A program made the position numbers and the translations under genes. A DNA stretch of 64,000 bases, from assembly GCA_026415315.1 (NCBI GenBank), contig JAOAHI010000002.1:45324-109323 (forward strand), written 5' to 3'. The notes beneath the pieces are model-generated. The model was not told the DNA's origin, made no database searches, and saw nothing but the letters and a program-made list of their open reading frames with translations. Below are positions 30,253 to 35,009 of the stretch, one piece after another (position 1 is the stretch's first letter; every line of letters begins with the position of its first letter). Source of the DNA: Methylohalobius sp. GTDB taxonomy: Bacteria; Pseudomonadota; Gammaproteobacteria; Methylococcales; Methylothermaceae.

Positions 30253-30849
30253 TCAGGCAACACGTTCGCTACGATAGGCTGCAGCTATCATGAAAAAGGC
30301 AGCCAAATCGTAGGCCGCGTGCACTATCATCGGTATTAACAGATTGCGCTCGCCCCCAACGTCTAACAACCATCCTAAATAGACCCCCGTTAGCGCGGCC
30401 AACAAGGTATACAAAGGTGTCACTGAATGGGCCAAGCCGAATAGAAGATTGCTGATCAGCAAAGCCCAAAGCTTACCCCACATTGTTTCCATCCATGGCT
30501 GGAGGAGACCACGGAACAAGATCTCCTCGCCCACCCCGGCCAAAGTTGCTATGTAGACCAACTCGTACCAACGACAGGACGAGAGCAGAGACCCTAACGT
30601 TTCGACCAGCAGGCGTCTGATCTTTTGCAGCTCCGGTACCGGAAGACGATAAGTGAGCCCAAACACCCACATCAGCGAAAGGGTAGCAAGCAGGCTCACG
30701 CCGAGCGCGTCAGCGTGCAGGCGCAACGAGGCCAAAGGATTTATCTCCAGCCACCAACCCAAAAGGTAGGCCAAGGCGATCAACCCTCCTTCAAAGCCAC
30801 TTGCCAATAAGAGAAATTGGGTTTTAGTCATCAGTTGCAATTTTAACAT
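30253..30849 (-). CDS. CPBP/Abi-family intramembrane glutamic protease
   Basis: GVGEEILFRG, FGLAH and HAAYD motifs; hydrophobic. Confidence 0.88.
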   Translation of the reverse strand: MLKLQLMTKTQFLLLASGFEGGLIALAYLLGWWLEINPLASLRLHADALGVSLLATLSLMWVFGLTYRLPVPELQKIRRLLVETLGSLLSSCRWYELVYIATLAGVGEEILFRGLLQPWMETMWGKLWALLISNLLFGLAHSVTPLYTLLAALTGVYLGWLLDVGGERNLLIPMIVHAAYDLAAFFMIAAAYRSERVA

Positions 30850-30945
30850 TCATCAACTTCTAGCATTTTGTCTGCTGCGCCACCCCAACGATCCTACCCT
30901 CTGACAGTGGTAAAATTCATTATTTGGTCAACCTTGCAGCTTGCG

Positions 30946-31986
30946 ATGAGTCACAGATACAAAGCAGTTGCCTTGATTTCCGGCGGCTTAGATTCGATGC
31001 TGGCAGCCAAGATCATCCAAGATCAGGGCATCTATGTGGAAGGACTTAATTTTTTCACCGGCTTTTGCGTGGAGGGTCACACCCATGCCATTCGCCAGCG
31101 CAACCAAAAAAAGCCCAAGCGCAACAACGCCTTGTGGGTGGCAGAACAGCTAGGGATTAAACTCCACATCCTAGACGTTATCGAAGAATACAAAAGCGTC
31201 GTCCTGAACCCCAAATACGGTTATGGAGCTAACCTAAACCCTTGTCTAGATTGCAAAATCTTCATGGTCGGCAAGGCTAGGCAGTGGATGGAGGAGAACG
31301 ACTTTGACTTTATCATTACCGGCGAGGTGATCGGTCAACGCCCCAAGTCTCAGCGCAAGGACACCATGCCGCTAATCGCTCGCGACTCGGGCGCCAACGA
31401 CCTTTTACTGCGCCCTTTGTCGGCCAAACTGCTTCCCCCCACCAAACCGGAACGGGAAGGCTGGGTAGATCGCAACAAGCTGTATGGCTTCTGCGGGCGC
31501 AACCGTAAGCCACAGATGGAACTGGCCAAAGCGTTTGGTCTTACCGATTACGCTCAACCAGCCGGCGGCTGCTGCTTCCTAACCGATGAAAACTATGCCC
31601 GTAAGCTCGCCGATCTGTGGCAAACCAGAGGCCAGCGGGATTACGCGCTGGACGACATCATGCTGTTGAAAGTAGGCCGCCATATCCGACCTAAGCCGGA
31701 ATTTAAGCTAATTGTTGCCCGCGAGGAAGGAGAGAGCCGGTTCTTGAGCGGCTACAAAAATCGCTTTGTATCCCTCTATCCAATTAGCCATCCTGGCCCT
31801 ATGACGCTGGTCGATGGGCATTTGACAGATGAAGGCCTTATCTTGGCCGCGCGCATCGTCGCTCGTTATAGCCAGGGCCGCGACGCTGATCGAGTCGAGA
31901 TCAAAGCGATCTCTTCTGAAGGCGAATGCTGCTTATGCGTTGCTCCCCTCAAACCCCACGAGATTCCGGCGGAGTGGCTGCTGTGA
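30946..31986 (+). CDS. PP-loop (ThiI/MnmA-like) putative sulfur-insertion ATP pyrophosphatase, no THUMP domain
   Basis: SGGLDS PP-loop, PCLDC, TGEVIGQRPKSQ, AGGCC; start moved to ATG 30946. Confidence 0.8.
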   Translation: MSHRYKAVALISGGLDSMLAAKIIQDQGIYVEGLNFFTGFCVEGHTHAIRQRNQKKPKRNNALWVAEQLGIKLHILDVIEEYKSVVLNPKYGYGANLNPCLDCKIFMVGKARQWMEENDFDFIITGEVIGQRPKSQRKDTMPLIARDSGANDLLLRPLSAKLLPPTKPEREGWVDRNKLYGFCGRNRKPQMELAKAFGLTDYAQPAGGCCFLTDENYARKLADLWQTRGQRDYALDDIMLLKVGRHIRPKPEFKLIVAREEGESRFLSGYKNRFVSLYPISHPGPMTLVDGHLTDEGLILAARIVARYSQGRDADRVEIKAISSEGECCLCVAPLKPHEIPAEWLL

Positions 31987-32210
31987 AGCGCAAGGTCATC
32001 GACGCGCGCGGCCTGTTGTGCCCGCTGCCGGTCATCCGGCTTCAGGAGGCAACCAAACGTCTTGCTGCTGGCACCGAGGTGGAGCTAATCGGAACCGACC
32101 CAGGCGTTTTGTATGACGTGCCTGCATGGTGTCGAGTCCATGGCCATCCGGTCTTGCAAACCTGGCAAGACAACGGCCAATACCACGTGCTGCTTGCTAT
32201 TCGGACATGA
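31983..32210 (+). CDS. TusA-family sulfur carrier
   Basis: DARGLLCPLP motif; GTG start overlaps the upstream stop (GTGA). Confidence 0.92.
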   Translation: MKRKVIDARGLLCPLPVIRLQEATKRLAAGTEVELIGTDPGVLYDVPAWCRVHGHPVLQTWQDNGQYHVLLAIRT

Positions 32211-33361
32211 GCACGACAGCCCTTCGTACTGAGCGAAGCCATGCTAAGCTGCGCATCACTTTAGTGGGTGCCGGGATCAATCTGGCGTTGGCAGCGGGCA
32301 AAGTAGCCGCTGGCATCTATGGAAGATCCTCGGCCCTGATCGTCGATGGCCTCCACTCGCTTTCCGATCTGGCTACCGACATTTTAGTCTTTTTCACCCT
32401 GCACCTTGCCGGTCAGGATGCCGATGACACCCACCCTTACGGTCACGGCCGGTTTGAGACAGCCGCCGCCATGGTGTTAGGGCTGATCCTCGCTGCGGTA
32501 GCTGCGGGTGTCATCTGGGACGCAGCCCAACGCCTGCAAGAAGATGCAACGCTGTGGCAGCCGAGTTATTGGACGCCGATCATTGCCGCCTTATCGATCC
32601 TGATCAAAGAGGGGTTGTATCGCTATACCCTCCACGTGGCCCACTGCACCCGCTCACGCCTGCTCGTTGCCAATGCTTGGCACCATCGATCGGATGCGGT
32701 CTCTTCGATCGTCGTTTTGATCGGCTTGGCAGGATCCCTATACGGCTATCGCTTCGCCGATTCGGTAGCTGCCATCGTCGTCGGCCTGATGATTGTCAAA
32801 ATCGGCCTAGAATTGGTTTTGAACAGCGCCCAAGAATTGGTAGACACGGCTTTACCTGCCGTCCGCGTCCAGCAAATCGAGCAAGCCATTCTAACTACCG
32901 AGGGCGTCAAAGCTTTGCACTGCTTGCGTACCCGCCAAATGGCGGGCGAGGCCCTGCTGGACGTGCATCTAGAAGTATCGCCGGAGATTTCCGTCTCCGA
33001 AGGCCACGCCATCGCTGACAAGGTACGCGATCGCCTGCTCGAGCAGTTCGAGGAAGTCTACGATGTCACCGTCCACATCGACGCTGAGCGCGACTTAAGC
33101 CAACCTTCTTTGCAGTTGCCGCTGCGCTCTGAGGTTCTTGCATACCTCCATCAAGTCTGGCGCGACCTGGCATATGCCAAGTCGATTGAGAAAATCAATC
33201 TGCACTACTTACAGGGCAAAATCCACGTGGAAGTCTATCTGCCTCTTAGTATCCTAACTCAAAGCGATCTTGCAGCAGAGGAAATCGTTACGCAATTGCG
33301 ACGGGCAATTACTGATCTTTCTTTTTTGGGTGGTCTTTCAGTATATTTCGTTGCTGCTTGA
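32207..33361 (+). CDS. Cation diffusion facilitator with extended C-terminus
   Basis: HSLSD and HHRSD metal sites, HPYGHGRFE, VHLEV...HAIAD; ATG overlaps the TusA stop (ATGA). Confidence 0.93.
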   Translation: MSTTALRTERSHAKLRITLVGAGINLALAAGKVAAGIYGRSSALIVDGLHSLSDLATDILVFFTLHLAGQDADDTHPYGHGRFETAAAMVLGLILAAVAAGVIWDAAQRLQEDATLWQPSYWTPIIAALSILIKEGLYRYTLHVAHCTRSRLLVANAWHHRSDAVSSIVVLIGLAGSLYGYRFADSVAAIVVGLMIVKIGLELVLNSAQELVDTALPAVRVQQIEQAILTTEGVKALHCLRTRQMAGEALLDVHLEVSPEISVSEGHAIADKVRDRLLEQFEEVYDVTVHIDAERDLSQPSLQLPLRSEVLAYLHQVWRDLAYAKSIEKINLHYLQGKIHVEVYLPLSILTQSDLAAEEIVTQLRRAITDLSFLGGLSVYFVAA

Positions 33362-33394: not shown

Positions 33395-33442
33395 TGCACC
33401 AATATGGTGCAAATCAATTAAGCTCTGAGTAAAAATAGTGCA
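33395..33442. promoter_or_regulatory. NtrC enhancer sites upstream of glnA
   Basis: TGCACCAATATGGTGCA (33395-33411, full consensus) and weaker TGAGTAAAAATAGTGCA (33426-33442), 31 bp apart. Confidence 0.85.
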
Positions 33443-33529
33443 AAAAAACAAAAATCTTTAACTTAGGTACAATTAAAAACATATCATGAAAGCAACTTAA
33501 TCTAACAATTAAAAATTCTTACATTTAGC

Positions 33530-33544
33530 TGGTACAACTTATGC
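33530..33544 (+). promoter_or_regulatory. Sigma54 -24/-12 promoter of glnA
   Basis: TGGTACAACTTATGC (GG-N10-GC), separated from the NtrC sites by an AT-rich spacer. Confidence 0.8.
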
Positions 33545-33599
33545 TTTCAAGACAGCTTGAACTGTTCGCTTAACTTTACATCCACAGGGGATAAAAAAT

Positions 33600-35009
33600 A
33601 TGTCTGTTGACAAAGTCTTTGCAATCATTAAAGAGAAAGAAATCAAATTCGTCGATCTGCGTTTTGCCGACACTCGCGGCAAAGAGCAGCACTTGACAAT
33701 CCCTGCCCACGTCGTAGACGAGGATTTTTTCGAGGCTGGCAAGATGTTTGACGGCTCGTCCATCGCTGGCTGGAAAGGCATCCAAGAGTCGGACATGATT
33801 TTGATGCCGGATCCAGATACCGCAGTCGTCGATCCGTTTTTCGAGACACCCACTTTGATTCTGCGCTGTGATATCGTCGAGCCCTCGACGATGGAGGGCT
33901 ACAGCCGCTGTCCGCGCTCAGTGGCCAAACGCGCCGAAGCCTACCTTAAATCCACGGGAATTGCCGATGCCGCCTTGTTCGGCCCGGAGAACGAATTTTT
34001 CATTTTCGACGACGTGCGCTGGGCTGCCGACATCCACCGCTGCTTTTATCAGATCGATTCCGAGGAAGCAAGCTGGAACACCGAGAAAGTCTATGAAAGC
34101 GGCAATATCGGCCATCGCCCAGGAATTAAGGGGGGATATTTCCCAGTTCCACCGGTAGACTCGCTGCAGGACATTCGCACCGCCATGTGCGAGACCTTAG
34201 AAGAAATGGGGCTGAAAACTGAAGTCCATCACCACGAGGTTGCTACCGCCGGTCAGTGTGAAATTGGCGTCCGCTGCAATACTTTGACTAAAAAAGCCGA
34301 CGAGGTATTGATCCTTAAATACGTGGTTCAAAACGTAGCTCACTCCTTTGGCAAAACCGCCACTTTCATGCCCAAGCCGTTGGTGGGCGACAACGGCAAC
34401 GGCATGCACGTGCATCAATCCTTGAGCAAAAACGGCGTTAACCTGTTCAGCGGCGATATGTACGGCGGACTGTCGGAATTAGCCCTCTACTACATCGGCG
34501 GCATTCTCAAACACGCGCGTGCTTTAAACGCCTTCACCAACGCCTCCACCAATAGCTACAAACGCTTAGTGCCAGGATTTGAAGCGCCGGTGATGCTGGC
34601 TTACTCAGCCCGCAACCGCTCTGCTTCCATCCGCGTCCCGTTTATCACCAACCCCAAAGCGCGTCGGATTGAGGTGCGTTTCCCCGACTCGAGCGCCAAC
34701 CCATATCTAGCCTTTGCCGCTATGCTGATGGCTGGCCTCGATGGAATCCAAAACAAGATCCATCCCGGTGAGGCGATGGACAAAAACCTGTACGACTTGC
34801 CACCCGAGGAGGAGAGGGAAATTCCTAAAGTGTGTTTCTCTCTTGATCAGGCCTTAGAACACTTGGACCGCGACCGCGCTTTCTTAAAAGCGGGCGGGGT
34901 ATTTAACGACGATCTGATCGATGCGTATATCGAGCTCAAAATGCAGGAAGTCACCCGTCTGAGGATGAGCACTCATCCGGTCGAACTCGATATGTACTAC
35001 AGCTTATAA
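33600..35009 (+). CDS. glnA: Glutamine synthetase type I
   Basis: [41 protein letters not shown] adenylylation loop. Confidence 0.99.

Follow-up and report, generated by a model that had tools for sequence, protein, structure and literature searches.

Two overlapping genes in a 64,000-nucleotide (nt) window of Methylohalobius sp. (assembly GCA_026415315.1, contig JAOAHI010000002.1, positions 45,324 to 109,323; the window is the whole stretch of DNA that we analyzed) likely encode a route to 4-thiouridine (s4U) in tRNA, most likely at U8, that works without a THUMP domain. The first gene encodes a ThiI-like PP-loop enzyme fused to an NFACT-R domain and the second a TusA-family sulfur carrier; a third overlapping gene, for a cation diffusion facilitator (CDF), is probably a conserved neighbor of these two and not their functional partner. 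At tRNA position 8, s4U is a bacterial near-UV sensor and stabilizes the tRNA, and many bacteria lack ThiI. An NFACT-R-type enzyme has been a computational candidate for s4U synthesis since 2014 and is absent from recent reviews. Our counts connect two threads, in that RudS, an enzyme that removes s4U, never occurs without either ThiI or the NFACT-R family in two samples of Pseudomonadota genomes. This co-occurrence pattern is the one new element of the analysis; the locus itself is ordinary, and the same pair is found in about half of gammaproteobacterial families. The family probably represents a third class of U8 sulfurase that lacks THUMP, receives its sulfur from TusA and probably depends on a cluster.

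The three genes are arranged as follows.

30946..31986, + strand: gene 1, ATG start, 346 amino acids (aa); ThiI-like PP-loop ATP pyrophosphatase with a C-terminal NFACT-R_2 domain

31983..32210, + strand: gene 2 (tusA), GTG start, 75 aa; TusA-family sulfur carrier

32207..33361, + strand: gene 3 (cdf), ATG start, 384 aa; YiiP/FieF-like CDF

A preliminary description of the locus, made from the letters alone, had the three genes joined by GTGA and ATGA overlaps, and the coordinates bear this out. The TGA stop of gene 1 (31984-31986) overlaps the GTG of gene 2 (31983), and the TGA stop of gene 2 (32208-32210) overlaps the ATG of gene 3 (32207). There is an in-frame TTG at 30868, upstream of the gene 1 ATG; the homologs of gene 1, however, are 345-347 aa long. 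A consensus scan found no promoter-like sites on the + strand within the three-gene unit, and terminator-like sites were no commoner across the region than in shuffled sequence. Gene 3 is probably co-transcribed with genes 1 and 2.

The motifs SGGLDS, PCLDC and GGCC that had been read in gene 1 are all present, and Pfam agreed with the earlier reading in matching neither a THUMP nor a rhodanese domain. The N-terminal part matched tRNA_Me_trans (the MnmA HUP domain, 2e-12) and ThiI (2.5e-8). What had been noted merely as an extra C-terminal domain is real, and proved to be the Pfam domain NFACT-R_2, a predicted tRNA-binding module that may stand in for THUMP. We aligned gene 1 with 124 diverse representatives (125 sequences in all, 37-66% identity) and built an AlphaFold2 (AF2) model with this alignment (pLDDT 95.2, pTM 0.91); the main features of the protein were as follows.

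30979..30996, + strand: PP-loop motif SGGLDS, residues 12-17; ATP binding/adenylation site, at least 90% conserved

31243..31254, + strand: CLDC (in NPCLDC); C100 and C103 invariant, at the start of helix 100-117 in the AF2 model

31570..31575, + strand: GGCC; C209 variable, C210 invariant, the latter being the third Cys of a CxxC+C set

31675..31977, + strand: NFACT-R_2 domain (PF18297), residues 244-344; E 1.1e-31, 109.4 bits against a cut-off of 26.9

Residues invariant among the 125 sequences include N98, C100, D102, C103, R132, G184, R187 and C210, while T166, E169, R185, Q190, R245 and R259 are, like SGGLDS, at least 90% conserved. The gene 1 protein thus has a TxxE motif (TKPE, 166-169), a GRxRxxQ motif (GRNRKPQ, 184-190) and, within its NFACT-R_2 domain, two conserved arginines (R245 and R259). 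Profile alignments gave a mosaic: NPCxDC falls at the place of D99/C102 of MnmA, whereas GEVxGQRPxSQ and RPL align with ThiI. More precisely, C100 and C103 align with D99 and C102 in the E. coli protein and with the CxxC in another MnmA, and C210 finds a weak counterpart in MnmA's GiCF cysteine. In the AF2 model C100 and C103 begin a helix and C210 lies in a loop, an arrangement like that of the cluster ligands described for TtuA (PMC7025502). A CxxC plus a further cysteine binds a [4Fe-4S] cluster in TtuA and in the C-type MnmA of Thermus thermophilus, in the latter of which the cluster is essential (PMC7025502). The suggestion that these cysteines form an Fe-S site in gene 1 is plausible, given that all three are invariant in the homologs.

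We compared the family with solved structures. In profile searches of the PDB, the best scores were to MnmA (1e-12), ThiI (2e-11) and the NFACT-R domain of RqcH/FBPS (1e-7). The nearest solved folds of the N-terminal part of the model, according to Foldseek, were MnmA, the [4Fe-4S] enzyme LarE, ThiI and TtuA, and those of the C-terminal part were NFACT-R domains of FBPS/RqcH (5h3w, 8s1u, 7aqc). The match to LarE, together with the name "thiamine biosynthesis protein" that some homologs carry in databases, might suggest that the gene 1 enzyme puts sulfur into a small molecule or cofactor (in a LarE-like manner, or in thiamin or molybdopterin synthesis) and not RNA. We consider this very improbable: the PP-loop domain is fused to a conserved RNA-binding NFACT-R domain with conserved arginines, the tRNA-modification gene queH is among the neighbors of the family elsewhere, the family co-occurs with RudS, and the "thiamine" names go back to the annotation of ThiI.

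More than 8000 database homologs have the same architecture as gene 1, and their names vary, with old MnmA names, "thiamine biosynthesis protein", "ThiI" and "hypothetical" all in use. Among methanotrophs the locus is also present in Methylomonas or Methylomicrobium. Gene 1 was rejected as a canonical ThiI, for it has no THUMP domain and scores 33.7 bits against TIGR00342, far under the cut-off of 264.5 and over profile positions 174-312 only. It was likewise rejected as MnmA or an MnmA paralog: the match to MnmA (TIGR00420 / PRK00143, 44.7 bits against a cut-off of 236.95) takes in the HUP domain only (residues 7-128), and a full MnmA is encoded on another contig, C31.

The NFACT-R_2 domain places gene 1 in a family that was predicted in 2014 to make s4U8. 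Burroughs and Aravind (RNA Biol 11:360; PMC4075521) described a ThiI-like PP-loop domain fused to DUF814/NFACT-R, without THUMP or rhodanese domains, and listed as its motifs the CxxC, an internal Cys, GRxRxxQ, TxxE and two arginines in NFACT-R. They found TusA to be the sole conserved neighbor and the family to be in near-mutual exclusion with THUMP-containing ThiI, and they predicted a new route to tRNA s4U8 that uses TusA and replaces THUMP-ThiI (PMC4075521). By its sequence, gene 1 is a typical member of this family. The preliminary description had held that the modification was unassigned and that its target could not be read from the sequence; that view is not supported, as the C-terminal domain identifies a family for which s4U8 had already been proposed (PMC4075521).

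Whether canonical thiI and mnmA genes exist elsewhere in the genome had been posed as a check, and the outcome was divided. The assembly is 2.23 Mb in size, 98% complete and, by its nearest homologs, of Methylothermaceae type. A true MnmA is encoded on contig C31 (438.6 bits against a cut-off of 236.95), and a profile search of the genome found no canonical ThiI, the best match being gene 1 itself, at 33 bits against a cut-off of 264.5. The genome also keeps an s4U eraser. Contig C83 encodes a protein of 313 aa with the RudS architecture, a TudS domain followed by DUF1722, and RudS proteins of this composition (TudS plus DUF1722) have been shown to remove s4U from tRNA (PMC11417400). Since the eraser is kept and ThiI is absent, another writer of s4U is needed.

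The RudS gene of contig C83 lies at L213:1471-2412 on the - strand, and its TudS portion is a 2-thiouracil desulfurase domain. It adjoins a BLUF-PsiE gene (L213:581-1447, + strand); the position of a BLUF blue-light sensor beside the eraser of a near-UV-sensitive nucleoside is suggestive.

We then examined how the family, ThiI and RudS are distributed in a class sample of 201 gammaproteobacterial genomes, about one per family, and in a phylum sample of 251 Pseudomonadota genomes, dominated by a few families. In the class sample the NFACT-R_2 protein was found in 97 genomes and canonical ThiI in 11, with both in just 1 (Fisher p 0.01); the phylum sample had the NFACT-R family in 43 genomes, ThiI in 99 and both in 0 (p 3e-11). 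DUF1722 was present in 54 of the 201 genomes of the class sample, 49 of them with the NFACT-R family and 6 with ThiI, and in 0 of the 94 that had neither (p 4.5e-19). When only DUF1722 frames of at least 300 aa were counted, 46 genomes qualified, again with 0 of the 94. The phylum sample gave the same picture: DUF1722 was present in 17 of its 43 genomes with the NFACT-R family and in 35 of its 99 with ThiI, against 0 of the 109 that had neither (p 1e-15). The authors of the RudS paper had observed RudS-bearing groups without ThiI and guessed at ThiI homologs with a different architecture (PMC11417400); NFACT-R, DUF814 and TusA go unmentioned there (PMC11417400). Together, the lack of ThiI and the RudS gene in this genome and these phyletic patterns support the reading of genes 1 and 2 as an s4U-forming module.

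At a locus in one gammaproteobacterial family (L161; genome G166, contig C25, 97418-98141), a DUF1722/RudS gene lies convergent to the gene 1 homolog, about 60 nt past its end, and the predicted s4U writer and eraser are thus direct neighbors.

Several points weigh against this reading. The genome counts and Fisher tests ignore kinship, and the phylum sample is heavy in a few families. The fusion of TudS to DUF1722 was verified in the Methylohalobius genome only, and elsewhere we relied on the length of the open frame. RudS is missing from about half of the family-positive genomes, and about half of all those sampled are without both ThiI and the NFACT-R family, so the exclusion of ThiI is weaker than strict replacement would be. 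The PP-loop domain appears by sequence to be as near MnmA (1e-12) as ThiI (2e-11), and "ThiI-like" is for that reason no clean phylogenetic statement. Analogy is what suggests U8 as the target position, and we found no experimental test of any family member in the literature, in which subscription journals were incompletely covered.

Some of these same points would be expected if gene 1 were a TusA-fed thiolase for some other RNA target (s2C32, s2U54, s4U9 or rRNA) chosen by the NFACT-R domain, with the exclusion of ThiI a lineage effect. The equal nearness of the PP-loop domain to MnmA and ThiI and the many genomes that have neither ThiI nor the family are consistent with such an enzyme, as is the fact that the other proteins known to carry NFACT-R, RqcH/NEMF, are ribosome-bound. 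We nevertheless regard it as unlikely. Against it stand the complete lack of RudS in the 94 and 109 genomes with neither ThiI nor the family and the exclusion of ThiI, which was seen in both samples as well as in the 2014 survey (PMC4075521); moreover, in this genome a genuine MnmA already covers s2U34.

The second half of the proposed s4U module is the carrier. The assignment of gene 2 to TusA with a CPxP motif was upheld (PF01206, E 5e-19, 68.3 bits against a cut-off of 28.6), and its Cys13 (32019-32021) is part of a CPLP motif (LLCPLPV). Against the equivalog model of E. coli TusA it scored 44.9 bits, under the cut-off of 78, which argues that it is a paralog and not the TusA of an MnmA relay. 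It is in fact one of two TusA paralogs in the genome, the other being encoded on contig C34. Among 89 gammaproteobacterial families with enough flanking sequence, tusA was directly downstream of gene 1 in 74, and in 64 of those 74 it overlapped gene 1 or was no more than 10 nt away. Given such spacing in so many families, the arrangement is not a chance one, and this linkage supports the earlier proposal of a dedicated sulfur-insertion pair made up of gene 1 and TusA.

Outside Gammaproteobacteria we compared 8 loci that carry a gene 1 homolog. TusA was beside the homolog at one of them, a Magnetococcales locus. At three Calditrichota-like loci the homolog was followed by an overlapping open reading frame (ORF) of 96 aa and then by queH, a cysteine desulfurase gene and nifU, which puts the family beside QueH, cysteine desulfurase and NifU. 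At the four further loci, sulfur genes were not found nearby.

The 96-aa ORF (L185:5041-5331, L191:5041-5331 and L192:5029-5322) is conserved and acidic and has the C-terminus ...SQEG(G). It matched nothing in Pfam and contains no cysteine. Because it occupies the place of TusA, we considered that it might be a hidden TusA; this was rejected, as the ORF is not similar to TusA and lacks a conserved Cys. In the Magnetococcales metagenome-assembled genome (L188:5297-6391) the gene 1-TusA pair is followed by an overlapping gene in the place of the CDF; its protein of 364 aa gave faint glycosyltransferase-like matches only.

The THUMP-less route to s4U that we propose would proceed as follows. A cysteine desulfurase, several of which are encoded in the genome, including one in an IscS-IscU-like pair, would charge Cys13 of the dedicated TusA paralog with a persulfide. 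The NFACT-R_2 domain, judging from its homology with tRNA- and ribosome-binding NFACT proteins, would hold the tRNA; the PP-loop domain would adenylate uridine O4 as expected of its family. On the model of TtuA, C-type MnmA and archaeal TtuI, a [4Fe-4S] cluster on C100, C103 and C210 would deliver the sulfur, with its free iron binding the TusA-derived sulfide. The product of gene 3 would be a YiiP-like exporter of divalent cations whose cytoplasmic domain is duplicated and which stands outside the thiolation reaction, and gene 3 would share the transcript owing to an old gammaproteobacterial order of gene 1-tusA-cdf-glnA. The glnA gene behind it would have its own NtrC/sigma-54-type promoter.

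Gene 3 is a CDF, as previously described (TIGR01297, 233.8 bits against a cut-off of 82.35; also PF01545 and PF16916). It falls under the cut-offs of the subfamilies MamB (204.7 against 350), MamM (170.5 against 350) and FieF (143.6 against 420). The HxxxD pairs of transmembrane helices 2 and 5, H50/D54 and H159/D163, are invariant. Foldseek matched the protein to YiiP (8f6e; E 2e-15, 26% identity, TM-score 0.8 on the target). Like YiiP/FieF (PDB 8f6e, 3h90), it has a six-helix transmembrane domain, a first cytoplasmic domain and the HxxxD pairs; unlike them, it has an additional C-terminal module of about 85 residues.

33104..33358, + strand: CDF C-terminal extension, residues 300-384; alpha-beta-beta-alpha-beta in the AF2 model, pLDDT about 85-94

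The extension is kept in CDF orthologs (matches reach residue ~381) in about 100 of the 201 gammaproteobacterial genomes. It had no match in Pfam, and BLASTP found no similarity to the first cytoplasmic domain. A sequence repeat of that domain was accordingly rejected on the negative BLASTP and Pfam results, and it is the modeled fold that suggests a duplication, with the extension as a second cytoplasmic-domain-like module.

The 89 families differed in which of the genes tusA, cdf and glnA followed gene 1.

tusA-cdf-glnA: 40 families

tusA-cdf: 7 families

tusA-glnA: 17 families

tusA only: 10 families

glnA only: 1 family

none of tusA, cdf and glnA: 14 families

The preliminary description had supposed that metal efflux by the CDF protects or tunes an Fe-S enzyme. 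On this view the three genes would be a functional unit, in which export of a cation (Fe, Zn or another) by the CDF serves an Fe-S sulfurtransferase. The ATGA overlap is in keeping with this, as is the tusA-cdf order in 47 of the 89 families, with a gap of no more than 10 nt possible in 29 of 39 loci, and so is the unusual second cytoplasmic-domain-like module of the CDF. Gene 1 and the CDF also co-occur, the CDF being present in 72 of 97 genomes with gene 1 against 29 of 104 without it (odds ratio 7.4, kinship ignored). The tight coupling of tusA and cdf and this odds ratio count against our reading of a two-gene module, and they leave a small chance of a functional link.

The distribution of the CDF, however, argues against that view. 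Orthologs were found in 101 of the 201 genomes. Of the 72 that also have gene 1, the two genes were adjacent in 50 and apart in 22 (a few of these possibly because of contig breaks), while 25 of the 97 gene 1-positive genomes had no CDF. Conversely, in 10 of 20 gene 1-less genomes examined among the 29 with a CDF, the CDF was directly upstream of glnA. Seventeen families have tusA and then directly glnA, the CDF was at 0 of the 8 gene 1 loci outside Gammaproteobacteria, and TusA was the sole conserved neighbor in the 2014 survey (PMC4075521). We therefore rejected the CDF as an obligate partner on its distribution in the 201 genomes and the 8 loci outside the class, and found the supposed protection or tuning of the Fe-S enzyme unsupported. 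A three-gene functional unit is in our view unlikely. Equally doubtful is a more specific form of it, in which a YiiP-like exporter with a duplicated sensor-like domain controls local Fe/Zn and thereby keeps the [4Fe-4S] sulfurase from being mismetallated or starved; if true, a tRNA-thiolation system would have metal efflux as its third, regulated component. The simplest reading of the gene orders is an old array of gene 1-tusA-cdf-glnA, with independent losses of the pair or of the CDF.

A 1.4-Mb genome (G109, contig C1, 279162-280727) has kept the CDF, adjoining which there is only an NFACT-R remnant that covers profile positions 50-104 and contains an internal TAA; gene 1 seems to have decayed in place there.

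The unit appears to end before glnA, which lies at 33600-35009 behind an AT-rich spacer of 238 nt. The following elements were read directly from the sequence.

33395..33545, + strand: glnA control region and operon boundary

33395-33411: palindrome TGCACCAATATGGTGCA, upstream of glnA

33530-33545: GG-N10-GC element TGGTACAACTTATGCT, upstream of glnA

We take the palindrome TGCACCAATATGGTGCA to resemble the NtrC site consensus, and the GG-N10-GC of TGGTACAACTTATGCT presumably resembles a sigma-54 promoter. Because the spacer holds these NtrC-like and sigma-54-like elements, glnA was taken as a separate transcription unit. Its membership in the operon is unlikely on the same grounds, although the stretch from cdf to glnA gave no terminator-like site. 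Many gammaproteobacterial families keep the order cdf-glnA or tusA-glnA.

On the other side of gene 1, a gene for a CPBP/Rce1-like intramembrane protease (30253-30849, - strand) is divergent from it. This neighbor is retained in the two closest relatives only (L006 and L007).

The preliminary description was correct in seeing a dedicated enzyme that inserts sulfur supplied by TusA and probably has an Fe-S cluster; it missed the identity of the C-terminal domain and read too much into the CDF. It had set against its own view the case of a gene 1 that is the genome's only ThiI or MnmA ortholog, with a TusA/CDF linkage that is not conserved. What we found corresponds to half of that case: gene 1 is the only ThiI-like gene, MnmA is separate, the linkage to TusA is conserved and that to the CDF holds only inside one class.

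Compared with known systems, gene 1 agrees with the family of Burroughs and Aravind (PMC4075521) in its domain order, all listed motifs, the adjacent TusA with its active-site Cys and the lack of ThiI in the genome. Beyond that description there are the downstream CDF/glnA synteny in Gammaproteobacteria and the co-occurrence with RudS, and nothing essential is different. Another close system is the archaeal TtuI/ThiI of Methanococcus maripaludis and Pyrococcus furiosus, a U8-tRNA sulfurase whose CxxC+C binds an essential [4Fe-4S] cluster (PMC9825150). It shares with gene 1 the PP-loop, the CxxC+C, the lack of a rhodanese domain and the same proposed product, s4U8, but it keeps an N-terminal ferredoxin-like domain and THUMP and has no TusA partner described. 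Gene 1, in contrast, has a C-terminal NFACT-R domain in place of THUMP and an overlapping tusA gene, and its cluster is a predicted one.

The C-type MnmA and the TusA-TusBCDE-MnmA relay of E. coli resemble gene 1 and its neighbor in the position of NPCxxC, in a third Cys of G-x-C-F type and in the use of a TusA carrier. Unlike MnmA, gene 1 has no central or C-terminal barrel domains, and TusBCDE-like genes, known from the E. coli relay, were not seen adjoining the locus. With the ThiI of E. coli, which acts with IscS in a rhodanese-persulfide route to s4U8, gene 1 shares a uridine-adenylating type of PP-loop, and its GE..GQ..SQ and RPL motifs align with ThiI of Bacillus anthracis. It differs from E. 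coli ThiI in having neither THUMP nor rhodanese, the place of the former being taken, on our reading, by the NFACT-R_2 domain and sulfur being supplied by the dedicated TusA.

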